From Acidimicrobiaceae bacterium (GTDB taxonomy: Bacteria; Actinomycetota; Acidimicrobiia; Acidimicrobiales; RAAP-2), in contig PKWY01000033.1 of assembly GCA_003132205.1 (NCBI GenBank), forward strand, positions 90,373 to 154,372: a DNA stretch of 64,000 nt. The letters run 5' to 3'. The notes below the pieces were generated by a model that worked only from the letters and a program-made list of their open reading frames with translations, was not told the DNA's origin and made no database searches. The first letter of the stretch is position 1. Each line of letters starts with the position of its first letter. A program made the position numbers and the translations under genes. Of the stretch, positions 41,154 through 56,065 are shown piece by piece.

Positions 41154-42203
41154 TCACTTCTCGGATTCCGAAATCGACAACGTGGTAAGTCGTCGGCGAT
41201 GAATCAGCATCTGGGCTCTGTCGATCAATACGGCGAACAAGAGAAGCACTCCGGTGATGATGAGTTGCCAGTACGTCGCCGTAATCCCGATGAGATTCAG
41301 CCCCTTATCAATCGTGAAGAAGAAGATTATTGCGATTGCTGTTCCAAAGGGCCCACCCGACCCTCCGACGAGCGCCGTTCCACCGAGCAGCACCGCCGCG
41401 GCCACAGTGAGCTCGTCGCCACCAAGGGCCGTTGGATCCACCGAGTTTGAATTGAATCCGATGAGCAATACCGAAGCAATGCCAGCGCACAGCCCCGAGA
41501 TCGCGTAGACGGCGACGGTCACACGCTCTACCGCGATTCCCGATAGGCGCGCCGCGTGTGAGTTCCCTCCCACCGCGTAGATGTCCCGACCAAAATACGT
41601 CTTGTGGAGCACGAGACTGAGAACCACCAGTACGGCCAACATCAAGAGTGAGATGTACGTGAAGGGTCCGAGTTGAGCGTAGAAGAACGATCCAAAGGTC
41701 GTCGTCGTCAGTACGAGGGTGCTGTCATTCAAGATAAGACGCGCCAACCCCTCGTAGGCCACCAGCCCGGCGAGCGTGACGATGAAGGCGTTGAGACGAA
41801 GTCGCGCGATAAGCAACCCATTGACGGTTCCCACCACGAGGCCCACGACCAGGCAGGCGAAAATCCCGACCACGACTCCGAAGTGAACCGTCATCTCACC
41901 ACCACAGACCGCCGCGAGGACCGCCGTCGAGGAGACCGAGAGATCGATGCCCCCCGAGATAATGGTGAGCGTCATGCCCATGCCCAGCAGGAAGTCAATC
42001 GAGGCACTGCTCAGGATGCTGTTGACGTTGGTCTCATCTAGAAAACCCGAAAATTTGACGCGGAAAGTTACGACAGCCGCGACAAAAACCACCAGGACCG
42101 CTGCGAACTTGGGCACCTTTCGCAGATGCCCCCAACGGTCCGCCGGGCTCAGCACCGTGTCCCTCGCTCCACTTTCCACCACTTCATGTTCCGTTATTGT
42201 CAT
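41154..42203 (-). CDS. Sugar-type ABC transporter permease (RbsC-like)
   Basis: GGIDLSVS, G.VNGLLIA, YAVGGN..AARLSGI and AAVLLGGT motifs. Confidence 0.92.
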   Translation of the reverse strand: MTITEHEVVESGARDTVLSPADRWGHLRKVPKFAAVLVVFVAAVVTFRVKFSGFLDETNVNSILSSASIDFLLGMGMTLTIISGGIDLSVSSTAVLAAVCGGEMTVHFGVVVGIFACLVVGLVVGTVNGLLIARLRLNAFIVTLAGLVAYEGLARLILNDSTLVLTTTTFGSFFYAQLGPFTYISLLMLAVLVVLSLVLHKTYFGRDIYAVGGNSHAARLSGIAVERVTVAVYAISGLCAGIASVLLIGFNSNSVDPTALGGDELTVAAAVLLGGTALVGGSGGPFGTAIAIIFFFTIDKGLNLIGITATYWQLIITGVLLLFAVLIDRAQMLIHRRRLTTLSISESEK

Positions 42204-43771
42204 GACTTCCTTTCAGAAATTGCGACCGACATAATCTGCTCCTCGGTGGCGCCTCGATCAAAGACCCCCACAATCCGTCCCGCCCTCATCACCGCTATCC
42301 GGTCGCAAAGTCGCAGCAACTCCGGCAGTTCGGATGAGGCGACGATGATGGACATTCCCTCGTCGGCGCACGCCTCAAGAATTGAGTAGATCTCTGCTTT
42401 CGCCGCCACGTCGATTCCACGCGTCGGCTCATCCAAAAGCAGTACGCGAGGCCTTCGCCTCAGCCATTTCGCGAGAATCACCTTCTGCTGCTGTCCACCA
42501 GAAAGCGACGACATCGGGGCATGCAGTGGCGTTCGGGGCAGACCCAGCCGCGCCATCCAGGCGAGGGCCTCTTCACTCTCGCGTCGGCGTGAACGCCAGA
42601 ACTTCAGGCCCCGCTTGGTCATGAACATGTTCTCGAGCACCGTCATTCCGATGACCGCCCCCTTCTCGCGGCGACTGTCGGGGACAAGGGCGAGCCCAGC
42701 TCGCATCGCCTCTCGAGGCGATGGCGCTTGCAGTGCGACGTCCGCCATTTCGATCACGCCGCTTGACTGCGGATTGAAACCAAAGATGGATTCGAGAAGT
42801 TCGGTCCGCCCCGCGCCCATGAGGCCCGCCATGCCCAGAATCTCACCCCGGTGAACCTCGAGCGATGCCCCCTTGACGAAGCCATCCTTGGTGAAGACGT
42901 TGGTGATGCGAAGGGCCGACTTCTGATGGCTCTCATCGTTCAAGGAGATCGAACGAGGATGAATCTTCGCGAGTTCACGTCCGACCATGCGACTCACCAT
43001 CCACTCCTCATCAATTCCTTTCGCCGCGCTGGTCTCAATATGAACACCGTCGCGCAAGATAGTGATGGTGTGGGCGAGTTCCAGAATCTCGGCGGTTCGG
43101 TGAGAAGTGAAGGCCACCGCCAAGCCCTCGCTGGCGAGTTGCTGTACCAGCTTGATCAGCGTTCGCACGTCATCGGATTCGAGTGACGCCGTTGGCTCGT
43201 CAAGTAAGAGCAGTCGCGGGCGAAACGACAACACCCTCGCGATCTCGACCAGCTGCTGCTGGCTTACCGAGAGGTCACGCACCGGCAGGGAGACATTGAC
43301 ATCAAGACCCACGTAGTCGAGTGCCCGGATCGCCCGGCTCACCAGGTCCGGCCAGCGCAAGACTCCATTTCGAGATGCAACGCGCGAACCGAGCAGGACG
43401 TTCTCAGCGACACTCAACTCGGGAATCAGACTCAACTCCTGGCTCACTATCGCAACACCGCGCATTCGGGCGTGACGAACAGAGACGTGGTGCTCGGCGA
43501 TGCCATCAATCAGGATCTCGCCGCTGTCAGGCCTCAGCATCCCGCTGAGACAGTTGAAGAATGTCGACTTGCCAGATCCATTTTCGCCAACTAGAGCGTG
43601 AATCTCTCCAGCCCTGAACGAGACCGAGACGTCGTTAAGCGCCGTCACCGGACCGAAGAACTTGGAAATGCTCCTCGCCTCGACGATGAGCGGGCCATGC
43701 TCCGCTTCTCCGAGCATGCTCGGTGACACCTGCTCGGTGACCCCACGACTTCCCACTAAATGACCCCCCAT
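42200..43771 (-). CDS. Sugar-type ABC transporter ATP-binding protein (RbsA-like; start may be a few codons downstream)
   Basis: GENGSGKS, LDEPT, LSGGQQQKV, DEPTRGID. Confidence 0.93.
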   Translation of the reverse strand: MGGHLVGSRGVTEQVSPSMLGEAEHGPLIVEARSISKFFGPVTALNDVSVSFRAGEIHALVGENGSGKSTFFNCLSGMLRPDSGEILIDGIAEHHVSVRHARMRGVAIVSQELSLIPELSVAENVLLGSRVASRNGVLRWPDLVSRAIRALDYVGLDVNVSLPVRDLSVSQQQLVEIARVLSFRPRLLLLDEPTASLESDDVRTLIKLVQQLASEGLAVAFTSHRTAEILELAHTITILRDGVHIETSAAKGIDEEWMVSRMVGRELAKIHPRSISLNDESHQKSALRITNVFTKDGFVKGASLEVHRGEILGMAGLMGAGRTELLESIFGFNPQSSGVIEMADVALQAPSPREAMRAGLALVPDSRREKGAVIGMTVLENMFMTKRGLKFWRSRRRESEEALAWMARLGLPRTPLHAPMSSLSGGQQQKVILAKWLRRRPRVLLLDEPTRGIDVAAKAEIYSILEACADEGMSIIVASSELPELLRLCDRIAVMRAGRIVGVFDRGATEEQIMSVAISERKS

Positions 43772-44066
43772 GACATCGAACTACTACGACCCAGCGACCT
43801 TGCGCGAGACCGAAATCAATTCCGCGAACGCTTGAGTCGCGACGGCCCCACTCGTTCGATCGCCACAGAACTTCATAAGAGGACCTGCCGACGCTCCGCG
43901 ATTACCTGGATTAGTCGCAACACTGGGACCAATGCTCCGCTGGAATACCGTGCGCGCGGTTGGCCCCAAGAGCCCCATCTCCTGGTCCAACACCGCACAT
44001 GGAACCGGCCACGAAACGAGAATTGATCCGCCGCACAGGCTTTCGTACCACCAAAATCATCGCCTT

Positions 44067-44095
44067 AGTCTAAAGTGTATAAAGTTCTGTGTCAA
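44067..44095 (-). promoter_or_regulatory. Sigma70-type promoter TTGACA-17-TAGACT with an operator-like motif in the spacer
   Basis: - strand TTGACA at 44095-44090 and TAGACT at 44072-44067; the spacer contains AACTTTATACACTT. Confidence 0.7.
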
Positions 44096-44254
44096 GTTTA
44101 GTCCACACTCTGGCCGCTGCGTTTCAATGGCATGAATTCAGGTTTTCGGCGCCAGCGCCCTTAAGGTTCAGGTCGCCCGGTTTTCTCGAACTTCGCCGAT
44201 GGATCCCAGCCGTTCGAGGAGTCCCCTGCAGCCGGATGGGGGTCAAAGCGGTGC

Positions 44255-45007
44255 TTATGAGCCTGCCAAGAGCGCTCCGGCGCGCGGGACCACCGTTTCA
44301 AGGCCGAGCACTTTGAGCGTCTTCCACACCGTCGCGACAGAAGCGGAGAGAACAGGTATGTCAAATTGGTCCTGAACGATCTGGATCGCTGGTAGCGACG
44401 GCATCTGCACGCACGCGCTCAACACCAAGGCATCCACGCCTTTGGTGTCAATCTTGTGGGCGAGCTCGGTGAGATTGGCGGGATCGAGTCGGCCAACGGC
44501 GAGATTGTCGGCGACACCGAGACTTATCGTGTCGTGCACTTCAATGCCCTCAGTACGGATGTAGTCGCATACCATCTCAGTCAAGGCCGGCACATATGGG
44601 GTGATAACCGAGATCTTCTTCGCGCCAAGATGGTGCAAGGCCTCAACGAGGGCTCCGGCCGACGAGATGACGGGGACATTAAGGTTCGCCGAAGCCTTCG
44701 CTGCGGCGCGGAGTTTTTCCTCCGACTTGCGGTGGTAGCCCTGTCCCTGAGCCATGATGGCAATCAGACACGCGTAGGCCATCACATCCACATCGGCATC
44801 GGCCAGTTCTACCGCGCATCGTTCGGAATCGCAGTCCATCGCCCGTAATTCCTCCGGCGTGACGTGCTTCATCCGCATTCGACTGGAATGGAACGTAAAG
44901 CGCTCCGGACGGGTCGTCTCTCGCAGGTGAAGCATGGCGGGAATCTCCGTCTCCATTGTCGTATTGGAGCTCGGCACGATCAGGCCAACGCGTATGGCGG
45001 TCATCAA
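44255..45007 (-). CDS. maiA: Maleate cis-trans isomerase (Asp/Glu racemase family)
   Basis: GLIVPSSNTTMETEIP, FHSSRMRM, YACL.AIMA and LSACVQMPSL (two catalytic Cys). Confidence 0.93.
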   Translation of the reverse strand: MMTAIRVGLIVPSSNTTMETEIPAMLHLRETTRPERFTFHSSRMRMKHVTPEELRAMDCDSERCAVELADADVDVMAYACLIAIMAQGQGYHRKSEEKLRAAAKASANLNVPVISSAGALVEALHHLGAKKISVITPYVPALTEMVCDYIRTEGIEVHDTISLGVADNLAVGRLDPANLTELAHKIDTKGVDALVLSACVQMPSLPAIQIVQDQFDIPVLSASVATVWKTLKVLGLETVVPRAGALLAGS

Positions 45008-45023
45008 GGGTCTCCCAAGGGTC

Positions 45024-45854
45024 TCACCCGCCAGTGAAGGCGGGCTCGTAAAGCAGGTTGTAGGTAGCCAGCGCCGGCATGGACGCGGTGTCGCTGCGTT
45101 CCCACCGCAGCACGGCGGGACGAGGAATGCGACCCTGTGCGTCGCTCTCGAGATTGATCCCGATGCCGCGAAGCGTCAATAGCAGCGGGTCAAAACAGTG
45201 GTCCGGATTGAGATCAAGTATCAGCCCCAGCGCCGCGTCAATGAGGTGGAATTCAAGCACCTGATGCACCAATGCGCCATCACGTTGGCGAATCGCGTTG
45301 AGGAGCAGTTTGTCCGCGTAAAGAAAATCTTCGGGAACGCGGGGGCGCGAGAGGTACGCCCGTTGGTGGCGGTAGATCTTCGCGTGCAACGAGTGCGTCA
45401 GCTCTGCAATGGCGCTTGGGTAGTGATCCAACGCGACATCATGAAAACGCCTGTGCGCCTCTTGAAACTCACGGGTTCGATCGGTGTAGCGACTCATCGC
45501 ATCGAGAGCTTCGAGCATCTGAGCAATGTCCTGGTCGGTGATCCGGTCAAGCAGGGCCGTCAGCGTCGGGGGCTCCACCAGGAGTCGAAGCGCGTAAAAC
45601 TGCTCGGTGTCGCTGTTATTCAACGAGGAGACGTGCATGCCACGGTTCGCGCTGATGTTCAGCAGTCCGTCGCGTTCCAACCTTTGAAAAGCCTCACGTA
45701 GCGGCGTCCGACTCACCTGCAGCTCTCTCGCCAGATGCTCTTGTGATAACCGCTGTCCGGGCGCGAAGGATCCGTCGATGATGCGTTCACGCAGCACCAG
45801 ATAGATCTCGTCGACCATGGTGCCTGAGCGACTGCGGCGAACTTCTTCGGTCAC
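45024..45854 (-). CDS. GntR (FadR/FCD) family regulator with a C-terminal extension
   Basis: GQRLSQEHLARELQVSRTPLREAF..LE HTH plus FCD domain. Confidence 0.92.
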   Translation of the reverse strand: MTEEVRRSRSGTMVDEIYLVLRERIIDGSFAPGQRLSQEHLARELQVSRTPLREAFQRLERDGLLNISANRGMHVSSLNNSDTEQFYALRLLVEPPTLTALLDRITDQDIAQMLEALDAMSRYTDRTREFQEAHRRFHDVALDHYPSAIAELTHSLHAKIYRHQRAYLSRPRVPEDFLYADKLLLNAIRQRDGALVHQVLEFHLIDAALGLILDLNPDHCFDPLLLTLRGIGINLESDAQGRIPRPAVLRWERSDTASMPALATYNLLYEPAFTGG

Positions 45855-46132
45855 GAAGGCTCCTCGTACGAACCAAGGTTTCGGGCAAAGAGTTCGTTGA
45901 ATTTTTCCGGCGTGAGGGTCGAAATAACTTCGAGTTGCATCGCGTCCAGCAGAACGCGGTGCCCGAACTTCGGCGTGGCGAGCTCGAGCCTCTCGCCGTT
46001 GCGGGTGATCACCTTTCGAACCTTCACTCCGGTGAACTCATTCGCGATTCCAAAACTCCCCTCTTCTCCGATGATGCCGTCATCGGCCTCGTCGGAGAAG
46101 CCCTGCTCGTCCCCGCTGATCGTGTTACTCAC
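45851..46132 (-). CDS. Conserved small hypothetical protein of actinobacterial dioxygenase clusters (93 aa, GTG start)
   Basis: ANEF..V.VRKV.TRNG.RLE...P..G..V.LDA..LE pattern; GGAGG RBS; overlaps both neighbouring genes. Confidence 0.72.
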   Translation of the reverse strand: MSNTISGDEQGFSDEADDGIIGEEGSFGIANEFTGVKVRKVITRNGERLELATPKFGHRVLLDAMQLEVISTLTPEKFNELFARNLGSYEEPS

Positions 46133-47018
46133 TTTTCTCGACCTCCCAGTCATTGGCGACCGCATAGTCTGTGACAACGGCACCGTACGCATCGGGACGC
46201 ACACCACGCAGCACCGGCAGCTGCTCACGAACTCGGTCAATGGTATCGATATTAAGTTCGACCACCTGGTACGCCTCCAGAGCCTCGCCCAGGTCCACCA
46301 CTACCTCGCCCCACGGGCCGATGACACTCGCGTGCCCGTACGTGGGAAAGGCGTCGTCTTCGGCCCCGCCGATGGTGGCCGACGCAACGATATACACCGC
46401 ATTCTCGATAGCTCGGGCGCGTAGCAGTACCTCCCAATGCGCGCGTCCGGACGTTCGGGTGAACGCCGCGGGAACAAGAATGACTTCCGCGCCGGCCAAC
46501 GCGAGGCGTCGATACAGTTCGGGAAAGCGCACGTCGTAACAAATCGTGACTCCCACGCGCGTCCCGGCAATATCAAGCACAACGGGCCCCCCACCTGCTT
46601 GCTCAACCGACGACGCCTCGAACGACTGCCCGTCGATTCGGGCATCGAACAGGTGAATCTTGTCGTAGCCACCGACCAGGCGGCCCGTCGGATCGAAGAT
46701 CAGCGCTCGGTTTCGGGGCCGTTCATCCTCGTCGACAATGAACTTCGCTCCACCCAGCACCACGGTTACCCGATTCTCTGCGGCGGCCTTGGACAAACGG
46801 GTCAACGCGGGACTGTCGATCCGGAATGCTTCGGCTCTCATCTCGGTGTTGCTGCCGAGCATGAGGCAATTCTCGGGCAAGAGAACGAGCTCGGCGCCCT
46901 CGGCCGCCGCGCGAGCGACAAGGCGACACGCTGTCTCGACGTTGCGTTCGATGTCCCGAGTCGCGTGGAACTGTGTCAGTCCCACGCGAAGGACACGCTT
47001 GGGCTCCGGATGCTTCAT
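46125..47018 (-). CDS. Nitrilase-superfamily carbon-nitrogen hydrolase (Nit1/Nit2 omega-amidase-like; start corrected to 47018)
   Basis: Glu-Lys-Cys triad LLPEN / YDKIHLFD / ICYDVRFPE; ATGA overlap with the upstream dioxygenase gene. Confidence 0.92.
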   Translation of the reverse strand: MKHPEPKRVLRVGLTQFHATRDIERNVETACRLVARAAAEGAELVLLPENCLMLGSNTEMRAEAFRIDSPALTRLSKAAAENRVTVVLGGAKFIVDEDERPRNRALIFDPTGRLVGGYDKIHLFDARIDGQSFEASSVEQAGGGPVVLDIAGTRVGVTICYDVRFPELYRRLALAGAEVILVPAAFTRTSGRAHWEVLLRARAIENAVYIVASATIGGAEDDAFPTYGHASVIGPWGEVVVDLGEALEAYQVVELNIDTIDRVREQLPVLRGVRPDAYGAVVTDYAVANDWEVEKSE

Positions 47019-48130
47019 ACCGGCAGCTGCGCAGTCTGGTCGATTCGCAGGTTCACGACAGTCCAACCGCCGCCCGATGCCACCATTGGCTCGTAGGCGT
47101 AAACATCGGCGCACGCCCCCGGGCCCACCAGACCGAGCATGATTATCCAGTTCAGGAATTCGTACTGGCCATGGCTCAGCAGTGCGAAGGGTTCCAGTTT
47201 CGCCAAATCCAACCCGTGTCCGACCTGCAGCAGTTCCAGAATGTGCGTGTCAAACTCAATGTCGACCTTGCCGAAGACGCCTGGATCCAACCAGTGCGAT
47301 AGGCCGCCGGTCGCGAGGACCCCGACCCGTTGATTCGAAGCCTCGACCACCGATCGCAGTTGCTCGCCGAACGCCCGGGCGTTCCATGGGGAGAAGCTTC
47401 GCGCCGGCTGGGTGATGATGGGGATGACGGGCACATTCACGTCGGACAGGAGTTGGCGCAGCGGCACGATGAGCCCGTGATCCAGTTGGACCTCGGGGGC
47501 GTCTTCCACCTCGAGGCCGGCGTCGCGAACCGCTTGAACAATGGACGACGCCAACCCTGGGGAGCCCTCAACCGTCAGATTCAGATCCGGTCGGCCGAAA
47601 AATGCCATCGAGCCCGTATGGCTTGCCCCCGTTCCCACGACGAATGCTCCCGTCTTGAAGCTTTGGAAGTGGCAGTCCGCGGTAACGAGCAACACATCGG
47701 GCGCGGCGGCGCGAAGCGCCTCGGCCAGCTTCTGATAACCCTGGGTGAGTCGACCAACCGAGTCGGCGGGATCGATTTCGGGCCGGGCCAGGAGATCGGG
47801 CACGTGAGAGCACCCACCGGCGAAGACGAGATTCGCCGGAACTTCTGATTGTTCGATCTCGAGTGAGCTCACGTGGAAACCACCGGCGCTGCCCGAATCG
47901 GCAAGGTCCCCTCGGAACCACCTGCTGACCAAAATAGTGATGCCGTCATTGACCCCAGCACTTCGCAGTCGGTCGCGGTCTCCTGCGGCAATAACCAGCG
48001 CCCACTCCGGATCGAGCCCGAGTTCCTCGCCAACGGCAATTGGATCAACTTGAAACTGCTTCAGTACATCGGGGCGCCGGCCAAGTTCCAGGATGGCGTT
48101 TTCGAGTCTCGACAGCAAGTCCGCCGTCAT
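47015..48130 (-). CDS. Class III (LigAB-type) extradiol dioxygenase with an N-terminal LigA-like domain
   Basis: SHVP, DCH, DHG and GGLSHW LigB motifs, preceded by an ~80-aa F..DP......GL...GD...L...G segment. Confidence 0.8.
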   Translation of the reverse strand: MTADLLSRLENAILELGRRPDVLKQFQVDPIAVGEELGLDPEWALVIAAGDRDRLRSAGVNDGITILVSRWFRGDLADSGSAGGFHVSSLEIEQSEVPANLVFAGGCSHVPDLLARPEIDPADSVGRLTQGYQKLAEALRAAAPDVLLVTADCHFQSFKTGAFVVGTGASHTGSMAFFGRPDLNLTVEGSPGLASSIVQAVRDAGLEVEDAPEVQLDHGLIVPLRQLLSDVNVPVIPIITQPARSFSPWNARAFGEQLRSVVEASNQRVGVLATGGLSHWLDPGVFGKVDIEFDTHILELLQVGHGLDLAKLEPFALLSHGQYEFLNWIIMLGLVGPGACADVYAYEPMVASGGGWTVVNLRIDQTAQLPV

Positions 48131-49137
48131 GCAGTCACCAACTTTCCGGTATCAACGACGATGTGGCCGTCGATCTGGACTGTGCAGTCCCTCATCGGCA
48201 CGTCCAAGTGGGCGGGCGTATCGCGGTTCGCGAAACGGTTGCTGCCCGTTGACCACATGAAGCTTCCCGGAGCGGAACGCAGCTCCTGCCCGTAGAGCGT
48301 CCGCGCGTCGTAGACATCGAATGCCGCCCAGCTCGCAATCGGGTGAAGGCCCCATCCCATGTGCGAGATCGCCCACACTTCTGGATCGTTCCATGACTCA
48401 AAGTAATCGCGCAGGAGGAAGGCATCAGCCCCGCCCTTGACGTCGACGATGAACCCGTCCTCAACGGTGAAGACGACTTCGTCGCGGACATAGCGCTGCC
48501 ACGGGATGAGCGCGTCGCCGGGCTGGAGCACAATGGTTCCTTGCGTCGTGCGATCATTTGGGAAGCACGCGACGAATCCACTGGGCCAGTGATCCCAGCG
48601 GCCGGGCTCATCAACATAACCCCACTGGTGCGTGATCGGAAGGCTCTCTCCGGCGATATCCGCGCTGAGATCGGTGCCTACCGGACTGGTCACCCGCAGG
48701 GTTGTCCCGGCCTTCAATAGTTGGCCACCGGCCAATACGCTCTGGCGTAGTTCGTCATTTCCCATGAGTCGATCAAGGACGTTGGCCGGTTCGGCGACGA
48801 AAAGCATCCGCTTCCCATTGCCGGTGATTCTGGTGCGCACCGTGGAATGGATCAGGCCGCCCACGGTGACGTCGATCACCATGTCGCACTCCGCGGCGCC
48901 GGCGAGTAGCGCCGCAATCCCCCGATCGTCGGATTGGTGGGGCGGCAGCATGGGATGCGAGAGGCTGGGGGCGGTCAGTATGATCACACCGGCACCGATT
49001 TCTTGGGCCGCCGAGACCGCCGCGTCCACGTAATTCCCCTTCTGCCCCTGTTCGCTGATGACCGCGACGGTCTCGTCAGCGGTCAGCTTGCACAGTCGAT
49101 ACTGCTTGATGAAGAGTTGGTGCAGGCTACTGGTCAT
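48127..49137 (-). CDS. nicX: 2,5-dihydroxypyridine 5,6-dioxygenase family protein
   Basis: GRWDHWPSG, SHMGWG and HLDVP (His/His/Asp Fe ligands) motifs characteristic of NicX. Confidence 0.85.
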   Translation of the reverse strand: MTSSLHQLFIKQYRLCKLTADETVAVISEQGQKGNYVDAAVSAAQEIGAGVIILTAPSLSHPMLPPHQSDDRGIAALLAGAAECDMVIDVTVGGLIHSTVRTRITGNGKRMLFVAEPANVLDRLMGNDELRQSVLAGGQLLKAGTTLRVTSPVGTDLSADIAGESLPITHQWGYVDEPGRWDHWPSGFVACFPNDRTTQGTIVLQPGDALIPWQRYVRDEVVFTVEDGFIVDVKGGADAFLLRDYFESWNDPEVWAISHMGWGLHPIASWAAFDVYDARTLYGQELRSAPGSFMWSTGSNRFANRDTPAHLDVPMRDCTVQIDGHIVVDTGKLVTA

Positions 49138-49155
49138 TGTTCGTGTTCCTTTAAG

Positions 49156-49935
49156 TTAAAGAGTGGATCGGACGGCGCCGCCGTCAATATTGATGGCGGT
49201 ACCGGTTGAGAATGATGAGACGGGCGAGGCGAGGAAGGCCACGGTGTCGGCAATCTCCGACGCTTCGGCCCATCGACCAAGCGGAATGTCACGGACCGTT
49301 GCCGCACGTTCCTCATCCTCCGTCGTCGCGTGCTGTACCGACTTGGCCCGCATGATGTCGCGCATTCGGTCGGTGCCGGTCGCGCCCGGCATCACCTGAT
49401 TCACCCGCACCCCGAACGGGGCCAGTTCGAGGGCCAGTTGTTTTGCCAGCGCCGAAACTCCAGAGCGCATTGTCGCCGACAGCACGCCGCCAACTGCGGG
49501 CTGCTTTACCCAGGTGGAAGTCAGAAAGACGATGCTCCCCGATCCCTGCAGGCACATCTGCTGCGCGGCGCGGCGCGACAGTTGTACCGCCGGACGAAGC
49601 AGGGCGGCATACGCCGCTTCCCAGTCCTCGTCAGTCGTTTCGAGTGCGGGCAATATGCGCGGCCCCGGCGTGTTGCTCACGAGGATATCCAACCGGCCAT
49701 GCTCGGCGATGACCCGCTCGACGAGAACAGTGCCCGAACGGTCAAGGGTCAGGTCAGCTGCCTGCTTGGTGACGCCGCTGCCAATTCTTTCGATGGCGTC
49801 GTCAAGGGACGGACCCTCGCGCGAACTGATGACCACCTTCGCGCCTTCGCGAGCGAAGCGTTCCGCAACCGCGAAACCGATTCCCTTGCTCGCCGCGGTG
49901 ACGAGCACCACCTTGTCATCCAGACGCAGGTCCAC
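49156..49935 (-). CDS. SDR family oxidoreductase (GTG start at 49935)
   Basis: TAASKGIG, SNTPGP, LSATMR (atypical, no YxxxK), RVNQVMPG. Confidence 0.88.
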   Translation of the reverse strand: MDLRLDDKVVLVTAASKGIGFAVAERFAREGAKVVISSREGPSLDDAIERIGSGVTKQAADLTLDRSGTVLVERVIAEHGRLDILVSNTPGPRILPALETTDEDWEAAYAALLRPAVQLSRRAAQQMCLQGSGSIVFLTSTWVKQPAVGGVLSATMRSGVSALAKQLALELAPFGVRVNQVMPGATGTDRMRDIMRAKSVQHATTEDEERAATVRDIPLGRWAEASEIADTVAFLASPVSSFSTGTAINIDGGAVRSTL

Positions 49936-49936
49936 G

Positions 49937-50131
49937 TCAGCCCTCGATCCCGATGGCGTTTTCGGCACAGCCCGCGGCGGCATTGCGGGCGGAGTCCTCG
50001 TCACCGGCCGCAACGACGCCGCCATTCAACAGTTGGGCGAAGCCAAACTCGTCAATAACGAAGAGCGATGGGCAGATGTCCGCGCACGCTCCGTAGCCCG
50101 AACACTTGATCGGGTCTAGAAAGACTTTCAT
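49937..50131 (-). CDS. Single-cluster ferredoxin, probably [3Fe-4S]
   Basis: CSGYGAC..CP...C pattern (second Cys position is Tyr); 64 aa; AAGGAG RBS. Confidence 0.88.
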   Translation of the reverse strand: MKVFLDPIKCSGYGACADICPSLFVIDEFGFAQLLNGGVVAAGDEDSARNAAAGCAENAIGIEG

Positions 50132-50141
50132 TACTTCTCCT

Positions 50142-51359
50142 TTAGTTGACGGCAATCGGTTGCGTTGCCCGATCCGATGTGATTATTCTTGAGAAAGTGC
50201 CGGCGAGATTCGCCGCACCGTCGAGAAACGCGCATGCGCCGCGCCCCTGTAGCGCGGTTCCCCAACGAGCCAAGTTCGCCAGGGCATCGGGCTCAGCGCT
50301 GCCTTGACTGAACAGTTCGAGTGTGTCGGCGATGGCCGCGGTTCCCTTCACGCAGACTCCGCACTGCTGAGCGGACTCTTCGACGTACCAGCGGGCCAAC
50401 CGAGCGACCACATCTTCTATCCGCTCGTCGCAGCCGAGCACGGTCACGGCCCCGCAGCCGATGCCCGAGCCCGCAGCGCGCATGGCGTCATAGCACCACG
50501 TCGCCTCGAGCAGCGACGCATCGGCCACTCCCATGAACCACCCACCGGCGAGCACGCCACCTATCCCATTGCTCAATCCTCCGGCGCAGTCCTCGATCAG
50601 ATGTCCCAGCGTGAGTCCGTAGGGCACTTCGTAGACTCCAGGGCGCCGACAGGATCCGCCCAGGGTGACCAGCATTGTTCCGGGTGAGGCACTCGTCCCA
50701 AGTTCGCGGTACGTATCTGCACCGTTCCGCCCGATCCATGCGGCTTGGACCAGGGTCTCGACATTGGAGACGAGAGTCGGTCGTCCGTCGACGCCGGACT
50801 CGAAGGGGCGTGGCGGCTTGGACAGCGGCAGCGCGAGGCCACCGTTGATGGAGCGGCACACCGCGGTCTCCTCACCAGCGACGTACCGGTGTTCAACCAC
50901 GTGAATCTCGACAGCGACGCTGCCCGGTCTTGGCGGCAGCTCCTCCAGAGCCCGTTGCACCGACGACACAGTCTCTGGATGCGAAAGATAGATCACGGCC
51001 CGATCCGCACCGACGACGGCCGCCGCCAGTAGAAGACCGTCAATCACCGCGTGCGGACGGTTGGTCAGCAGCCACCGATCCTTGAAAGACGACGGCTCAC
51101 CCTCCTCGCCGTTGGCCACGACAACACGAGGGGCGCCACCATCACGGACTGCACGCCACTTGCGGTGCGCCGGAAAACCCGATCCACCCCGCCCGCGCAG
51201 TCCCGCCTGTTCGAGTTGGTCGATCAGTCCGCCGGTGACGACCGGCGCGTAGGTTCCGGCCGCGATCTCCTCTTGCAAGCTCAGCGGGCGCGAGCCGGAC
51301 TCGCCGATCACGAACCGGGGCGTCAGGCCCGGGTAGACGTCGGCAAAATGCTCTGTCAT
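50142..51359 (-). CDS. Stand-alone NuoF/Nqo1-like FMN/NADH-binding protein
   Basis: GLRGRGGSGFP..KW, NGEEGEP..FKD, YVAGEETA, NVETL and ESAQQCGVC...GACAF; no other nuo genes nearby. Confidence 0.88.
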   Translation of the reverse strand: MTEHFADVYPGLTPRFVIGESGSRPLSLQEEIAAGTYAPVVTGGLIDQLEQAGLRGRGGSGFPAHRKWRAVRDGGAPRVVVANGEEGEPSSFKDRWLLTNRPHAVIDGLLLAAAVVGADRAVIYLSHPETVSSVQRALEELPPRPGSVAVEIHVVEHRYVAGEETAVCRSINGGLALPLSKPPRPFESGVDGRPTLVSNVETLVQAAWIGRNGADTYRELGTSASPGTMLVTLGGSCRRPGVYEVPYGLTLGHLIEDCAGGLSNGIGGVLAGGWFMGVADASLLEATWCYDAMRAAGSGIGCGAVTVLGCDERIEDVVARLARWYVEESAQQCGVCVKGTAAIADTLELFSQGSAEPDALANLARWGTALQGRGACAFLDGAANLAGTFSRIITSDRATQPIAVN

Positions 51360-52021
51360 GCGCGCGCCTCAACTTCGGCGCTCGCCTCGTCAAACAATGC
51401 CAGGGCTCGGTCGAAGGTGACCACGTCGGCATACTTCGCATTCATGTCGAAGAGATTTGCCTCGTGGGGACCCTGGTGCCGGTCACCGACGCATGATTCG
51501 GGCACCAACGTCGGATAGCCAGCAGTACAGGCGTCGACCACGGTCGCGCGGATGCAGCCAGACGTCGTCGCCCCGGTGATCACGAGAGTGTCGACACGCA
51601 GGGTGGCCAGCAGGCTGGCGAGTCCCGTGCCGGCGAAAGCCGAGGCGGCCCGCTTCACGATCAGTGGCTCCGAGTCCAGACGCCCCAGGCGCGGATCAAT
51701 CGCCACCGCCGGGCTGCCTTCGCTCATGCACCGAAGCCCCGGCATCTTCGCGAGCCAGACGTGACCCTCAAGAGCGTCAGCCGCGAAGGCGATGGTCGTG
51801 AAGATGACCGGATGACCACTGGCGCGGGCTCGCCTCACCAACTCGGCCGTTCGTTCGACCACGTTATCGAGATCGCAGCCCGGTGCCCAGGCATCATCGG
51901 TGAATCCCACCGCCAGGTCAACCACGAGCAGCGCGGGCCGGTGTCCGACGCTAAGTCGGCCACCAATGCCTTTGCTGACGTAGCCTTCGCGCGCATCGTT
52001 GAACCAGGCGGGACTGCTCAC
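51356..52021 (-). CDS. nicF: Isochorismatase-family amidohydrolase, maleamate amidohydrolase-like
   Basis: PALLVVD, K.AASAF.GT, GATTSGCIRAT.VDA and HEANLFDM.AKY; clustered with nicX and maiA. Confidence 0.8.
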   Translation of the reverse strand: MSSPAWFNDAREGYVSKGIGGRLSVGHRPALLVVDLAVGFTDDAWAPGCDLDNVVERTAELVRRARASGHPVIFTTIAFAADALEGHVWLAKMPGLRCMSEGSPAVAIDPRLGRLDSEPLIVKRAASAFAGTGLASLLATLRVDTLVITGATTSGCIRATVVDACTAGYPTLVPESCVGDRHQGPHEANLFDMNAKYADVVTFDRALALFDEASAEVEARA

Positions 52022-52827
52022 GGTGTCCGCCTCGCGGGAGCGATGCCGCGAACGAGCAAACCCGAATCAACGGGAATCACGGTGCCGGTCATTGCAGCTG
52101 ACCCTTCCGCTGAACCGAGCAGCGCGTAGACCGCGCCGTAGTCGCTCAACTCCGGGATGCTGCCGAGAGGGAGGGCATCTTCGGTGCCCGGTAGCACCGC
52201 ATCTTTGGGCGTCTGGCCGAGCGAAGTAAGACCGGCCATCACCGTTGCGGCCACGCCGGGCGCCACCGCATTGATCCGAATATCGGGAGCGAGTTCGTAG
52301 GCGAGTTGACGCACGACGCCCACGACCGCATGCTTGGCCGCGGTATAGAGCACGCCGCCGCCGCCCGGTTGGAACGAAGCGAACGAGGCGGTGAGCACAA
52401 TTCGACCACGTGATGCTCGAAGGTGGGGCAGCGCCGCCTTGATGCCGAGCAGTGTCGAGCCGACGTTGACGCGGAAACTCTCATCGATGGCTGCTTCGAG
52501 CTGCGCTGGATCGATCTCGGCGAGCGAGACGGCTTGGTCGTAGATACCCACGCAGGACACCAACACGTCAAGTGAACCGAATTCGGAAATCACCCGCTCA
52601 ACGAGCCGCTGGTTGGCCGTCCACGTGGACACGTCCGAGCACACCCCTACCAGCTGACCCCCGGCAATGAAATCCGGAAACTCCTGGCTCAAGGCATCGA
52701 CTCGCTCGTTCGACCGATCCGCCGCGACAACGCGAGCTCCCTCTTCGAGGTATCGCCGCACCACCGCCTTGCCGATGCCGCCCGCTCCTCCGAGGACCAA
52801 GCAGGACTGCTCTTTCAACACACCCAT
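52018..52827 (-). CDS. cis-dihydrodiol dehydrogenase (BphB/HcaB-like SDR)
   Basis: GGAGGIG, YTAAKHAVVG.VRQLAYELAP.IR.NAVAPG; directly downstream of the Rieske alpha subunit. Confidence 0.88.
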   Translation of the reverse strand: MGVLKEQSCLVLGGAGGIGKAVVRRYLEEGARVVAADRSNERVDALSQEFPDFIAGGQLVGVCSDVSTWTANQRLVERVISEFGSLDVLVSCVGIYDQAVSLAEIDPAQLEAAIDESFRVNVGSTLLGIKAALPHLRASRGRIVLTASFASFQPGGGGVLYTAAKHAVVGVVRQLAYELAPDIRINAVAPGVAATVMAGLTSLGQTPKDAVLPGTEDALPLGSIPELSDYGAVYALLGSAEGSAAMTGTVIPVDSGLLVRGIAPARRTP

Positions 52828-52837
52828 GACGATCCCG

Positions 52838-54223
52838 TCAATCCTCGTCGAACGTGAGCGCGGGCCACTGACCTGGTTCGGCCTTCATCATGCCAAGGTA
52901 GAACTTGAACAGGTTCCGTTGAACACCCTCCTCGTAGCGAGTCCAAAATGCCTTTCCCGGCCCGGCCCAATCATCTACAGGATGACCAATTCCGATGCCC
53001 GGCATCCCCATTTGATAGTTGAGTTTGAAGTCCAGAACCTCAGCGGCGGTTGAACGCCCGGTTCTAGCAACGGTGATCCATGGTTCGGTGTCGTCCATCT
53101 CGAAAGAGCCGCCCATCGAGAAGGTTCCCAGTCCCGCCCGGTAGCTGCGTTGCTTTTCCTCTTCGGTCATGTTCTTGTAGGCGCAGAACCAGTTCCAGAT
53201 CTCGACCTTTCCTTCGCTGACGGGCTGCCACGTGCGTATCGTCAACACCGCGGTCGGCGGAAAGTTGGCGCCATCTTCGGTCATTGGCAATGCGAGGATG
53301 GAGAAGTTCGGAAAGACGTTTCCGACGAACACGCGCGAACGTCGCGCCACATTGAGCTGATCCTCGCTAATCCTTTCACTGGTGAACGTCTCGGCAACTC
53401 GCTCGGGGTAGCCGAAGAACTTCGGCCCGGGTTCATCGTCGTTCGGGGCCATCGAGAAGGACAACGAGTGTCCCGGTGATGCTTGGATGTGGTATCCCAT
53501 CATGTTGTCCTGGAATGACACCGGGAACGCGCCAATCTCCCACACTGACTTGTGCAGCGTTCCCAGGTGGTAGTCATCACCCGAAAAGTTGTCAGCCCCG
53601 GACTTCCAGTTCGCATCAATAACAAACCGCTGAGGTGCCCCGAGCACCTCGACGCCGTGCTCGTTGAGACCGAAGACCAGGTCCAGATACCAGCCCATGC
53701 CGCCGAGGTAGTCATCGAGCGACGGGGCCGTCGGGTCCAGCGTCGCGAAGATCAGACCGTGCTTGCTCCCCACCTTCGCGGCGCCGGCGAGTCCGTTACT
53801 GGACTTGTCCATGCCGCCAAAGGCGTTCTTCCACAGCGGCGCGCCGATTAGGTTGCCCTTCGTGTCGTAGGTCCAGCCGTGGTACGGACAGCGAAAGTGC
53901 GACGTATTGCCCGAGTCAGCGCGACAGATCTGGACGCCACGGTGTCGACACGCGTCAAAGAGAACGTTGATTTCACCCTGTTCGTCACGTACGACGACGA
54001 AGTTGTCCTCGCCGACCTTTCGCAGGACGTAGTCGCCCTTGGCCGGAATCTCGGATTCGTGCGCCAAGAAGACCCAGCAGCGTCCGAAGACGTTGCGCTT
54101 TTCGCGTTCGTAGATTTCCTTGCTGCCGTAGAGCGACGCCGGCAGCTCACCGACGGGTAGGCCGGCTTCGAGTTGGTCCAGAATTCGCTCTGAGTTGTCA
54201 GTACGGTTGGTAAAGTTCGTCAT
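52838..54223 (-). CDS. Rieske ring-hydroxylating dioxygenase alpha subunit
   Basis: CRHRG...CPYHGW Rieske site; NWK...NF.GDDYH...LH mononuclear Fe site; DDTEPW. Confidence 0.95.
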   Translation of the reverse strand: MTNFTNRTDNSERILDQLEAGLPVGELPASLYGSKEIYEREKRNVFGRCWVFLAHESEIPAKGDYVLRKVGEDNFVVVRDEQGEINVLFDACRHRGVQICRADSGNTSHFRCPYHGWTYDTKGNLIGAPLWKNAFGGMDKSSNGLAGAAKVGSKHGLIFATLDPTAPSLDDYLGGMGWYLDLVFGLNEHGVEVLGAPQRFVIDANWKSGADNFSGDDYHLGTLHKSVWEIGAFPVSFQDNMMGYHIQASPGHSLSFSMAPNDDEPGPKFFGYPERVAETFTSERISEDQLNVARRSRVFVGNVFPNFSILALPMTEDGANFPPTAVLTIRTWQPVSEGKVEIWNWFCAYKNMTEEEKQRSYRAGLGTFSMGGSFEMDDTEPWITVARTGRSTAAEVLDFKLNYQMGMPGIGIGHPVDDWAGPGKAFWTRYEEGVQRNLFKFYLGMMKAEPGQWPALTFDED

Positions 54224-54237
54224 TGTCAGCCTCGCTA

Positions 54238-54753
54238 TTAGAAGAAGATTGAGAGATTGTGCGTTCCGATGGCCGTCATATCCAGAAGAATCCTGCGCTC
54301 GAGCAGTCTTAGGACCCCATCCTCTCTGCGCAGGACGTCATGACGTTCGCCCGACAGTAGCTGTGGCACGACGTTGTCTTGTCGCGTGCGGTAGATGAGC
54401 AGGTTGCTGCGAACCGAAACTGTCCCGTCGTCGTTGGCCACGGGTCGCACGTTGGTGACGAAGTGGCGTATTCGAGATGGCGGATCCTCCGCCCACGCGT
54501 ACGCGCTTTCGTTGCGAGCGACTCGGGAGTTCAAGGAGCCGTAACGTTCATCGAGATGAAACGTTCCTTCAACCCACCCAGCCCCGCGGGCGCGCTCAAC
54601 GGTCTGGCGTAGGGGAAGTTGGTAGACAATGTCGCGACTGACCATGTCCTCCAGCCAGGTGCGTTCCAGACCGTCGTCCAGAAGTTCCGCTTCGCGAAAC
54701 AACCATTCTTTGATCTCCGCTCGAAGATTGACGACCGACTCTTGTGTACTCAT
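54238..54753 (-). CDS. Ring-hydroxylating dioxygenase beta subunit
   Basis: LFREAELLD...W, WAEDPPSRIRHFVTNV, SN.LIYR.R and R.D.LR motifs. Confidence 0.95.
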   Translation of the reverse strand: MSTQESVVNLRAEIKEWLFREAELLDDGLERTWLEDMVSRDIVYQLPLRQTVERARGAGWVEGTFHLDERYGSLNSRVARNESAYAWAEDPPSRIRHFVTNVRPVANDDGTVSVRSNLLIYRTRQDNVVPQLLSGERHDVLRREDGVLRLLERRILLDMTAIGTHNLSIFF

Positions 54754-54817
54754 GTACCCCCCCTATCCTCAAGTAAGAAACAAATTTGAATGCTCATGTC
54801 ACCGACATACTAAACAG

Positions 54818-54833
54818 AAATGAATACAGTTTT
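54818..54833. promoter_or_regulatory. Operator-like motif AAATGAATACAGTTTT upstream of the dioxygenase operon
   Basis: Shares TGAATACAG with 56066-56084; quasi-palindromic. Confidence 0.55.
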
Positions 54834-54962
54834 GGCAACGAGGACCTTGGCGAAGTTCCGACTTCGACCACTCGAACCTTGCGTCCAGTAGCTTCCGGCC
54901 CCGGGGTTCACCGAGCTGCCCGACTTTTCGCGCCGGGTGCGCTCGGTGAACCCCGTTTACTT

Positions 54963-55988
54963 CTACAAGTGGCTCTTCTCGGTCGCGGTCAGTTTGCCAA
55001 AGTTCTTCGCGTTGTACTGGGCGAACGGACCAATGATGGTGGTCTTGGCCGAGGACTCGTTGTTGATGGCGTCCCATGAGAGCGTGCCCAGATTGGTGCC
55101 GGCCGCGCTGTAGGCACTGAAGTCCCAACTGGCGCTTATCTCACCGCTCTTGATCGCAGCGACACCAGGAACGTCAAGTTCCGAGCCGAGGATGATTACT
55201 TTGCCCTTTCGTCCAGCAGCTTTCACGGCCGACGCGGCGCCAATGGCGGACGGATCGTTGTAGCAAATGAAACCTGCCAACTTTGGATAACGAGCAAGCG
55301 CGGCTGAGGCCGGGGCGACAGCGCCCGCAATATTATCGGTGGGGTTATTCACACGCTCGACAACTTTGATCGTGGGGAACTGTTTGGCCACCTGCATTGT
55401 CAGCGCATAGTCCTGATCCAACGCCGCCACTGGCTGGCCGTAGCCAATGTACGCAACTTGGCCCTTGCCCCCTCGGAGATGCGCCTTCAGATACAGGAAA
55501 CGCTGTTTGATAAATGCCTTGTTCGCGTGGGCATCCAGGTACTGACCGGTGAAGGGAGCTGACGGCGCAGTGCCACTCGCTGTCGTTGCCACCGCGTCAT
55601 AACCAATGACTGGGATACCAGCGCTCGCAGCCTGCGTCAAGACAGTGGTGTCAGTTTGTGAATCCAGGGGCCAAATGATTATTGCGCTGACCTTCTCAGT
55701 AATGAAGGTCTGGATGTTCGAAATCTCGGTTGTCGTACTGTAATCAGCCTGCAGCGTCACAACCTTGCAACCTTGCTTGGCCAAGTACGCCGAGGCGCCA
55801 GCTTCCGAATTGGCCAGATAGGTGTTGCCCGCAGTCGGATCAGAGAAACCCACCGTACAACTCGTGGCCGCTTTCGGCGTCGACGAGGCAGCTGAGATAG
55901 ATGCCCAACCAGCGCACGATATAAGCATTAAAGCTCCAGCGGCGAGCACTTTGATTGCTCCTGGAGTACGGACGGTTACACGATTCAT
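54963..55988 (-). CDS. Sugar-type ABC substrate-binding protein (start probably 55988)
   Basis: Signal peptide with possible LISC lipobox; I.TFIT..VSAIIIWP, ND..AIGA..A; PBP type I pattern. Confidence 0.88.
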   Translation of the reverse strand: MNRVTVRTPGAIKVLAAGALMLISCAGWASISAASSTPKAATSCTVGFSDPTAGNTYLANSEAGASAYLAKQGCKVVTLQADYSTTTEISNIQTFITEKVSAIIIWPLDSQTDTTVLTQAASAGIPVIGYDAVATTASGTAPSAPFTGQYLDAHANKAFIKQRFLYLKAHLRGGKGQVAYIGYGQPVAALDQDYALTMQVAKQFPTIKVVERVNNPTDNIAGAVAPASAALARYPKLAGFICYNDPSAIGAASAVKAAGRKGKVIILGSELDVPGVAAIKSGEISASWDFSAYSAAGTNLGTLSWDAINNESSAKTTIIGPFAQYNAKNFGKLTATEKSHL

Positions 55989-56065
55989 GCCAATCCTTTC
56001 GTCAGCCACTACGCAGCGACTGTTTATGGTGAAAACAGATTTCTACTATCTACTATTTAGAACAC

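Follow-up and report, generated by a model that had tools for sequence, protein, structure and literature searches.

We analysed a 64,000-nucleotide stretch of contig PKWY01000033.1 from an Acidimicrobiaceae bacterium (assembly GCA_003132205.1), hereafter the window, which carries on its minus strand an operon combining a Rieske-type oxygenase, two different ring-cleavage dioxygenases, two amidases and a maleate isomerase. We tentatively propose, at slightly less than even chances, that this operon directs the aerobic catabolism of a benzo-fused 2-pyridone, likeliest 2-quinolinone, via 5,6-dihydroxy-2(1H)-quinolinone to fumarate, 2-oxoglutarate and ammonia. The open-access papers and preprints that we searched yielded none that assigns these genes to a pathway or describes the gene combination. 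A '5,6-dihydroxy-2(1H)-quinolinone pathway' is nonetheless recognised as one of two common aerobic quinoline routes, listed without genes (PMC9029321, 2022). The expectation of a preliminary description of this DNA that the pathway would be undescribed may therefore hold for the genes but not for the chemistry.

Two coupled ring-cleavage dioxygenases in a conserved operon

Sixteen co-oriented minus-strand genes extend across positions 41154-56009 of the window, as seen in the list of open reading frames (ORFs) and their translations. All genes named in the preliminary description are present on the one strand at the coordinates of Table 1, and their Pfam, NCBIfam and PDB families agree with the earlier names. 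From the Rieske beta subunit gene to the maleate isomerase gene (54753 to 44255), 13 genes follow one another with overlaps or with no more than 18 nt between them, measured with ortholog-consistent start codons. The preliminary description had drawn a single, largely overlapping run that also took in the ATP-binding cassette (ABC) transporter genes; the tight packing of the 13 core genes bears this out, but the ABC genes are specific to Acidimicrobiia and lie outside the conserved core.

To place the operon in a wider context, we scanned one genome per prokaryotic species and recovered 73 loci with a close relative of the window's NicX-family protein (62-95% identity). Gene content was counted in the 50 of these loci that have full 10-kb flanks, and locus ORFs were clustered after a choice based on GC content at third codon positions, antisense ORFs being common in high-GC DNA. 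Eight genes, encoding the Rieske alpha subunit, NicX, the LigB-type dioxygenase (here LigAB), the Nit amidase, an atypical short-chain dehydrogenase/reductase (SDR2), maleate isomerase, the isochorismatase-family amidase and the NuoF-like protein, occur together in 36 of the 50 loci. The order is near-invariant: beta, alpha, (dehydrogenase), amidase, NuoF, ferredoxin, SDR2, NicX, LigAB, Nit, small ORF, GntR, isomerase. Hosts within the Actinomycetota include Amycolatopsis, Pseudonocardia, Streptomyces, Nocardia, Gordonia, Rhodococcus, Janibacter and Actinomadura, and the cluster is also found in several Alcaligenaceae, in Sphingomonas and in uncultured lineages. Dozens of bacteria from soil and sludge share the operon. 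A synteny search of the kind proposed in the preliminary description thus returns the same core order from several phyla. Since this order recurs at 50-80% protein identity in those 36 loci, the arrangement is real and far beyond chance. Within the window's own genus, just 2 of 37 species genomes carry this NicX, so that the operon counts as an accessory trait of that genus.

This conservation also bears on whether the operon is a chance mosaic, in which a carbocyclic module would lie beside an independent 2,5-dihydroxypyridine/maleamate module with no substrate in common. Each half does resemble a known type of independent pathway, and the maleamate genes stand alone in a Bosea locus. However, the halves are interleaved (dehydrogenase-amidase-NuoF and SDR2-NicX-LigAB) and overlapping, with their order kept across phyla, and the hydrolase, hydratase and aldolase of a meta-cleavage pathway were not found among the operon proteins. 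Because the interleaved gene order is conserved, we consider a mosaic of this kind nearly excluded and extremely improbable.

The first of the two ring-cleavage enzymes belongs to the NicX family, and PF26233 (NicX) is annotated on an orthologue of it. The window protein keeps the four iron ligands H265, S302, H318 and D320 together with H105, H189 and R293. It is a member of a clade in which the exchange of Glu177 for Gln (E177Q) is invariant, including in the protein of Rhodococcus pyridinivorans YF3 discussed below, whereas a canonical NicX from a nic cluster keeps Glu and all of the Pseudomonas putida residues. Leu104 is likewise exchanged for Ile in the clade, whose members also have deletions around Cys76 and Glu308. 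According to the NicX structure paper, Glu177 contacts a substrate oxygen and the ring nitrogen.

The second ring-cleavage enzyme, LigAB, retains its iron ligands and catalytic His: in an alignment with LigB (1b4u_B), the SH(V/I)P, (C/D)H, DHG and GG(L/M)SH motifs and the Glu of E-x-x-x-W are all kept. A separate LigA small subunit is absent, and the N-terminal ~95 residues of the LigB-type protein have no match to Pfam LigA. The gene is present in 46 of the 50 loci and overlaps the NicX gene by 4 nt, the LigAB start lying over the NicX stop. Judged from this overlap and their shared distribution, LigAB and NicX are conserved as a pair and coupled in translation. SDR2, encoded ahead of NicX, keeps the NAD(P)-binding motif TAASxGIG, but in at least 90% of its orthologues Ser and Arg replace the catalytic Tyr and Lys, and NTPGP replaces NNAG; SDR2 may be no ordinary dehydrogenase.

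Table 1. Features of the operon and its flanks in the window, in order of transcription
Feature	Position	Strand	Supporting match or remark
CUT2-type periplasmic substrate-binding protein (SBP), likely start ATG 55988	54963..56009	-	Peripla_BP_4 2.9e-34
Terminator-like hairpin	54902..54955	-	Inverted-repeat search and sequence reading; splits SBP gene from main operon
Rieske oxygenase beta subunit	54238..54753	-	Ring_hydroxyl_B 5.7e-33
Rieske oxygenase alpha subunit, proposed 2-quinolinone 5,6-dioxygenase	52838..54223	-	Rieske and Ring_hydroxyl_A domains
cis-Dihydrodiol dehydrogenase, classical SDR	52018..52827	-	PRK06200 7e-82; HcaB 1e-72; BphB_TodD 2.5e-66
Isochorismatase-family amidase, NicF/Ami-like (maleamate amidohydrolase)	51356..52021	-	Isochorismatase 1.2e-33
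NuoF-like FMN/Fe-S flavoprotein	50142..51359	-	Complex1_51K 2.9e-36; NADH_4Fe-4S 6.9e-14
Small single-cluster ferredoxin (3Fe/4Fe type), 64 aa, ATG 50131	49937..50131	-	Fer4_15 2.6e-10
Atypical SDR (SDR2)	49156..49935	-	adh_short_C2 3e-42; proposed role on oxo-enoate side chain
NicX-family Fe(II) ring-cleavage dioxygenase, Q177 clade	48127..49137	-	PDB 7cn3 2.4e-70
LigB-type extradiol dioxygenase (LigAB), single 371-aa chain with fused N-terminal domain of ~95 aa	47015..48130	-	LigB 1.1e-33
Nit1/Nit2-like carbon-nitrogen hydrolase (Nit), proposed NicD substitute	46125..47018	-	CN_hydrolase 5e-54
Small conserved protein, ~93 aa	45851..46132	-	No Pfam or NCBIfam match
GntR/FCD transcriptional regulator	45024..45854	-	GntR 5e-18; FCD 2e-12
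Maleate cis-trans isomerase	44255..45007	-	PDB 4fq7 2.3e-87; 2xec 1.6e-59
Promoter-like site	44067..44095	-	TTGACA-17-TAGACT, 10/12 matches; consensus match only
ABC transporter ATPase, two nucleotide-binding domains	42200..43771	-	ABC_tran 1.3e-56, two stretches
ABC transporter permease	41154..42203	-	BPD_transp_2 4.9e-33

A candidate route from 2-quinolinone

The route would begin with the Rieske oxygenase. The translation of its alpha subunit contains the motifs CXH-X17-CXXH (CRH...CPYH), GDDYHLGTLH and EMDD, which are those of the Rieske site and of the 2-His-1-carboxylate iron site. Among PDB structures, its top match is the naphthalene dioxygenase NarAa (2b1x, 9.6e-118), followed by phthalate 3,4-dioxygenase (2.2e-95), and the database names of its relatives are generic throughout. 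The beta subunit gene is found in 47 of the 50 loci, and the cis-dihydrodiol dehydrogenase has an intact catalytic Ser-Tyr-Lys. With respect to electron supply, Pfam and NCBIfam searches revealed no reductase of the glutathione-reductase (GR) or ferredoxin-NADP-reductase (FNR) type among the operon proteins, the sole flavoprotein being NuoF-like. Its gene is kept in 42 of the 50 loci, invariably in the order amidase - NuoF - ferredoxin. We propose this NuoF-like protein, the sole candidate for an NAD(P)H-oxidising partner, as the NADH:ferredoxin reductase of the Rieske oxygenase. It has three of the four N3-cluster cysteines (ESAQQCGVC...GAC compared with the usual ESCGxCxPC...C). The start codon of the ferredoxin gene at 50131 is preceded by a strong ribosome-binding site, AAAGGAG.

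From this gene set we infer the substrate, the regiochemistry and each individual step of the following route. First, the Rieske alpha and beta subunits, fed by the ferredoxin and the NuoF-like flavoprotein, would convert 2-quinolinone to its cis-5,6-dihydrodiol, which the classical SDR would re-aromatise to 5,6-dihydroxy-2-quinolinone. LigAB would then cleave between C5 and C4a to give 5-hydroxy-6-(3-carboxy-3-oxopropenyl)-2-pyridone, in effect a 2,5-dihydroxypyridine bearing a C4 keto-acid side chain on C6. SDR2 would modify this side chain, probably by reduction, a task that an enoate-reductase-type member of the old yellow enzyme (OYE) family may take over in many other genomes. The Q177 NicX is predicted to open the pyridone at C5-C6, yielding an N-acyl maleamate (an imide) that would be N-(2-oxoglutaconyl)maleamate, or N-(2-oxoglutaryl)maleamate if the double bond is reduced first. 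The Nit1-like amidase would split this imide into 2-oxoglutarate (or 2-oxoglutaconate) and maleamate, the NicF-like amidase would hydrolyse maleamate to maleate and ammonia, and maleate isomerase would convert maleate to fumarate. In this scheme the GntR/FCD protein would regulate the operon and the CUT2-type ABC system would likely import the substrate.

The carbon balance of the scheme closes, with C9 giving C4 (fumarate) and C5 (2-oxoglutarate); each conserved gene has a role and no required enzyme is missing. Direct cleavage of the substituted ring by NicX is the simplest continuation after LigAB, since the operon lacks a hydratase-aldolase, hydrolase or decarboxylase for the side chain. 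The preliminary description had instead routed the pyridine ring through free 2,5-dihydroxypyridine. This now appears unlikely because no enzyme in the operon removes the C4 side chain and because the exchange at the substrate-contacting residue, E177Q, is invariant in the NicX clade. We also rejected a route in which the side chain is shortened to 3,6-dihydroxypicolinate as in naphthalene degradation, because the three enzymes required for this (hydratase-aldolase, aldehyde dehydrogenase and decarboxylase) are lacking.

Both amidases have relatives that are compatible with the predicted steps. The isochorismatase-family amidase matches Ami of P. putida S16 (4l07/4l08, 4e-48) and NicF (3ot4/3uao, 1e-44) in the PDB, where N-carbamoylsarcosine amidase scores slightly above the maleamate amidases, and by these matches it is of the maleamate amidohydrolase type. 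The Nit protein is placed nearest the Nit1/Nit2 branch (deaminated glutathione amidase) by its matches to deaminated-glutathione amidase models (1.6e-51 and 1.3e-48) and to NitFhit (2.4e-43) and Nit2 (7e-42) in the PDB. Nit1 hydrolyses N-substituted 2-oxoglutaramate (deaminated glutathione), which is the bond type predicted for the Nit substrate here.

Variants of the cluster indicate how its parts may work together. In Bosea (L066), NicX, Nit, isomerase and amidase occur alone, without the oxygenase and LigAB, and because Nit is paired with these three genes we place it in the maleamate module, in the position of NicD. A nic cluster in Pantoea has the canonical arrangement with an alpha/beta-hydrolase NicD. 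Loci of Gordonia (L024) and Janibacter (L047) keep amidase, SDR2, NicX, LigAB, Nit, GntR and isomerase without Rieske genes, and both have an FAD phenol-hydroxylase-like gene near the cluster. LigAB and SDR2 are missing together from two further loci, L038 and L069, and a close relative, L041, has both. L038 retains the oxygenase, dehydrogenase, NicX and Nit, and L069 is decaying, with its Rieske alpha and NicX genes split. Read from gene content, the modules form a putative chain: [Rieske system + dehydrogenase] -> [LigAB + SDR2] -> [NicX + Nit] -> [amidase + isomerase].

The same three loci (L038, L041 and L069) come from uncultured 'delta proteobacterium'/Binatia-like metagenome-assembled genomes (MAGs). 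A luciferase-like oxidoreductase gene precedes the cluster there, and, in the region at ~12.8-19 kb of these loci, the gene for an amidase-signature amidase comes after it together with a complete urease operon (ureABC-EFGD); the isochorismatase amidase, NuoF-like gene, ferredoxin and isomerase were not found nearby. We set the urease genes aside as a clue to the substrate because they occur in this one lineage only.

In its fullest form, the proposal would make the cluster the complete genetic basis of the 5,6-dihydroxy-2(1H)-quinolinone pathway. It would then comprise a Q177 NicX able to open a 2,5-dihydroxypyridine substituted at C6, with N-(2-oxoglutaryl)maleamate as the product, a Nit1-like amidase in the role of NicD that releases 2-oxoglutarate and maleamate from this imide, and a complex-I NuoF paralogue that serves as NADH:ferredoxin reductase of the Rieske oxygenase. 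We consider it somewhat unlikely that all of these elements hold together.

Evidence on the identity of the substrate

The most specific clue to the substrate came from plasmids. Of 72,556 plasmids scanned, only NZ_CP040721.1 of R. pyridinivorans YF3 carries a protein more than 60% identical to the window NicX (70.5%) or Rieske alpha subunit (72.4%); all other plasmid homologues of these two proteins are below 45% identity. One of them, the haloarchaeal Natribaculum longum plasmid CP095396.1, has NicX and Rieske alpha homologues ~27 kb apart, each ~40% identical to the window's. In NZ_CP040721.1 the whole cluster lies within an island bounded by insertion sequences (IS), adjoining a molybdenum (Mo) hydroxylase of the xanthine dehydrogenase (XDH) family, XdhC, a CoxG-like protein and moaA/D/E. 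Window proteins are 47-72% identical to their YF3 counterparts, and the island is the site of the plasmid's sole Rieske gene and sole XDH-type Mo gene. It (L077/L078, 52-100 kb) is bracketed by many copies of IS3, IS5, IS110, IS481 and IS701 elements, and beside it lies a phenol/catechol meta-cleavage module comprising a two-component phenol hydroxylase, a vicinal oxygen chelate (VOC) dioxygenase, an aldolase and an acetaldehyde dehydrogenase. Together, the island and this module look like parts of a coking-wastewater catabolic plasmid.

Strain YF3 comes from a quinoline-degrading denitrifying bioreactor, and it converts quinoline to 2-hydroxyquinoline without O2 while later steps need O2; the genes responsible were not named (PMC7193041). 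This physiology fits a Mo hydroxylase acting first, with O2-dependent steps after it. In addition, ~12 further genomes have orthologous Mo hydroxylases (60-75% identity) next to the cluster. The cluster-adjacent Mo large subunit of Amycolatopsis is 60% identical to that of YF3, and its top PDB match is quinoline 2-oxidoreductase (1t3q_B, 2.6e-133). The preliminary description had suggested a quinolinone-type bicyclic substrate whose benzene ring is opened first. We favour this suggestion in view of the coupling of LigAB with NicX, the kinship with naphthalene dioxygenase and the Mo-hydroxylase neighbour in YF3, with the exception of isoquinolinone, which had also been named. Isoquinolinone was rejected on chemical grounds together with kynurenate and quinaldate, as none of the three is expected to form a para-dihydroxypyridine or maleamate, and the pyridoxine and trigonelline routes were rejected because their enzyme sets differ.

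The substrate could also be monocyclic, either a pyridone or a pyridine carboxylate; 2-hydroxypyridine, 6-hydroxynicotinate and 6-hydroxypicolinate are examples. The Rieske oxygenase and dehydrogenase would then produce a trihydroxypyridine that the NicX clade cleaves towards maleamate, with LigAB and SDR2 acting in a side branch or on another, related substrate. Rieske-type attack on a pyridone is known: the HpoBCDF enzymes with HpoE of Rhodococcus PY11 yield trihydroxypyridine in this way, the Rieske protein PicB of the pic cluster acts on a pyridone, and the hpo route, too, includes an amidase of the Nit type. NCS1-type permeases and a polar-solute ABC system point to a small polar lactam, genes for a nicotinate phosphoribosyltransferase (NAPRTase) and for an isochorismatase resembling PncA are located at a distance of 2-4 kb, and L038 has the oxygenase, dehydrogenase, NicX and Nit genes but neither LigAB nor SDR2. 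Nevertheless, such a substrate leaves no role for LigAB, although its residues are intact, its gene is widespread and it is coupled to NicX. Moreover, neither an HpoH-type cyclase nor a PicC-type decarboxylase is among the operon proteins (Pfam/NCBIfam), the lineage of L038 and L069 shows decay, the nearest solved relatives of the Rieske oxygenase act on naphthalene and phthalate, and the sole plasmid copy is from a quinoline-fed reactor. On balance, we judge a monocyclic substrate unlikely, but a serious rival.

The two sequential ring cleavages that speak for 2-quinolinone would apply equally to another bicyclic or amino-aromatic N-compound handled by the same enzyme logic, for example a substituted quinolinone, a quinoline carboxylate or a benzo-fused lactam, provided that the ring-fission product is, or cyclises to, a ring of the 2,5-dihydroxypyridine type. 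Polar importers would suit a carboxylated compound, and variable accessory genes suggest several entry substrates. These are a BaiCD/FadH-like enoate reductase of the OYE family in ~31 loci, extra SDRs and a two-domain VOC protein in many loci, as well as an FAD monooxygenase and a flavin reductase. Other accessory genes encode the XDH-family Mo hydroxylase with CoxG in ~12 loci and a distant NCS1 permease, which accompanies ~21 loci, among them L010, L022, L032 and L047; this protein has 12 transmembrane (TM) segments, no Pfam match and a distant NCS1-like signature (TIGR00800, 2e-15), and some copies end in a Cys-rich, zinc-ribbon-like tail. However, an ending through maleamate, maleate and fumarate needs an unsubstituted C3-C4, and only 5,6-attack on the 2-quinolinone skeleton gives the para-dihydroxy pattern. 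The evidence points directly to no specific alternative of this kind. We regard these compounds as unlikely substrates, though as serious a rival as the monocyclic ones.

Several observations nonetheless weigh against 2-quinolinone. The tie of the cluster to quinoline through YF3 is a circumstantial association that draws on the plasmid of that strain. In the source genome of the window, no Qor-like hydroxylase adjoins the operon, and the sole XDH-type large subunit is 33% identical and encoded ~55 kb away; the Acidimicrobiia host would therefore need to import quinolinone itself. The sugar-type ABC importer found here and the NCS1-type permeases of the ~21 loci suggest a small polar lactam and so an at least equally good fit to a monocyclic pyridone. 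In addition, the cluster is frequent among ordinary soil actinomycetes and was seen in a peat-bog MAG, settings in which quinoline itself is no obvious nutrient. We know of no NicX-family enzyme that accepts a C6-substituted substrate, and older work on 3-methylquinoline reportedly found a trihydroxypyridine after ring fission, which the proposed scheme does not produce. As the Bosea Nit sits with NicX in a locus that lacks LigAB, Nit may also be a plain N-formylmaleamate deformylase. The assignment of these genes to quinolinone draws on sequence and association.

Flanking genes and comparison with known systems

The transporter genes appear to form transcription units apart from the main operon: a hairpin with a perfect 15-bp inverted repeat lies just 3' of the SBP stop codon, and a 480-bp gap with a promoter-like site inside it precedes the ABC ATPase gene. 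The CUT2-type ABC system is likely an importer in this Acidimicrobiia genome. Its genes are confined to the Acidimicrobiia versions of the cluster (the window, L001 and L073), with synteny of the ATPase gene in L001 and L073 only, and the SBP has just weak matches to ribose-binding proteins in the PDB, which give no clue to its ligand. The GntR/FCD gene is present in 47 of the 50 loci. The word CTGTATTCA precedes the SBP gene (56081-56089) and the Rieske beta gene (54813-54821), in both cases on the minus strand, and a looser form of it, CTTTATACA, is contained in the promoter-like region ahead of the ABC ATPase gene (~44067-44095, minus strand). This word may be a shared GntR operator.

The small protein encoded between Nit and GntR has 18 invariant columns over 20 orthologues (NEF.G...KV.T..GERL...P...LD.M.LE). 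Its AlphaFold model comprises four strands and two helices (mean pLDDT 65), and a Foldseek search with this model against the PDB returned nothing at E <1. Past the ABC permease gene, by 2-4 kb, lie the plus-strand genes for the NAPRTase (37564-38907; NAPRTase_N, 8e-31) and the second isochorismatase-family, PncA-like protein (39159-39728), a pair that may represent ordinary NAD salvage or hint at pyridine handling nearby. Immediately upstream of the SBP gene, a 625-aa ORF (56842-58719, minus strand) lacks any significant match in Pfam.

Quinoline and related N-heterocycles are major pollutants of coking wastewater and coal tar. To our knowledge, genes for aerobic quinoline degradation are well known only for the 8-hydroxycoumarin branch. 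The 5,6-dihydroxyquinolinone branch has been a list of metabolites for ~30 years, and its first dioxygenase is an orphan EC entry. If our proposal is correct, the cluster offers a testable gene set in culturable type strains and a marker for bioreactor metagenomes, and it would add three unusual enzyme roles, namely a NicX clade with a new substrate, a catabolic Nit1-type amidase and a NuoF-type oxygenase reductase. Type strains with the cluster include Amycolatopsis orientalis DSM 43388, Nocardia vinacea NBRC 16497, Gordonia namibiensis NBRC 108229, Janibacter terrae NBRC 107853 and Thermomonospora echinospora DSM 43163. Even with a different substrate, it would represent a widespread, unannotated N-heterocycle pathway of soil actinomycetes.

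The published 5,6-dihydroxy-2(1H)-quinolinone route is reportedly described biochemically in Comamonas testosteroni 63 and Rhodococcus sp. B1, and 5-hydroxy-6-(3-carboxy-3-oxopropenyl)-2-pyridone is said to be a metabolite of both Rhodococcus B1 and Comamonas 63. Its sequence of 2-quinolinone, 5,6-dihydrodiol, 5,6-diol and meta-cleavage to a 5-hydroxy-6-substituted 2-pyridone is the one predicted here, and, as in YF3, O2 is needed after the initial Mo-hydroxylase step. In the accessible literature, however, the scheme comes without genes and the steps past ring fission are undefined; NicX cleavage, the Nit amidase and the maleamate branch would be additions made here, outside that scheme. A further parallel is the upper naphthalene pathway (NahA-NahB-NahC), in which dioxygenation, dehydrogenation and extradiol cleavage of one ring leave a hydroxy-aryl compound with an oxo-enoate chain. 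In contrast to that pathway, the isomerase, hydratase-aldolase and aldehyde dehydrogenase for the side chain were not found here, and NicX appears to open the second ring directly.

The lower half of the operon resembles the maleamate pathways of P. putida KT2440 (NicX-NicD-NicF-NicE), Alcaligenes faecalis JQ135 (PicD-G) and P. putida S16 (Hpo-Nfo-Ami-Iso), with which it has in common a NicF/Ami amidase, a maleate isomerase and a dioxygenase of the NicX family in which the four iron ligands are all kept. Unlike those pathways, which employ the alpha/beta-hydrolase deformylase NicD/Nfo, it has a Nit1-like amidase, and no alpha/beta-hydrolase domain was detected in any operon protein (Pfam/NCBIfam). 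Its NicX is only ~40% identical to the canonical enzymes, with E177Q, L104I and two loop deletions, and its feeder enzymes are Rieske and extradiol dioxygenases rather than NicC, PicBC or HspB. The picolinate (pic) cluster of A. faecalis JQ135 further differs in its 3,6-dihydroxypicolinate decarboxylase PicC and its Mo dehydrogenase PicA: the operon has neither a decarboxylase of the amidohydrolase_2 type nor a Mo hydroxylase (Pfam/NCBIfam), and a Mo hydroxylase adjoins the cluster in ~12 related loci only.

The preliminary description had also pointed to the hpo cluster of Rhodococcus rhodochrous PY11 (HpoBCDF, HpoE, HpoH and HpoI), which we compared by description. The likeness stands for the multicomponent dioxygenase, the dehydrogenase, the nitrilase-superfamily amidase and the actinobacterial host, but not for the HpoH-type cyclase that opens the trihydroxypyridine ring, which was not found here. 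Conversely, NicX, LigAB, the NicF-like amidase and maleate isomerase are present here, and the predicted passage through maleamate differs from the hpo route, where 2-oxoglutarate is the sole end product. Among actinobacterial three-component Rieske oxygenases (NarA, NidAB/PhdCD and PhtAaAbAcAd), the alpha/beta hydroxylase is ~41-45% identical to NarAa and PhtAa, and their [3Fe-4S]-type ferredoxin has a counterpart in the small Fer4_15 ferredoxin. These systems use a glutathione-reductase-type reductase, whereas the operon has the conserved NuoF-like FMN/Fe-S protein.

Taken together, all enzyme families of the operon are already known, and the overall chemistry of the route was outlined decades ago. 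What would be new is the assignment of genes to the route, a Q177 NicX acting on a substituted ring, Nit in place of NicD and a NuoF-type reductase.

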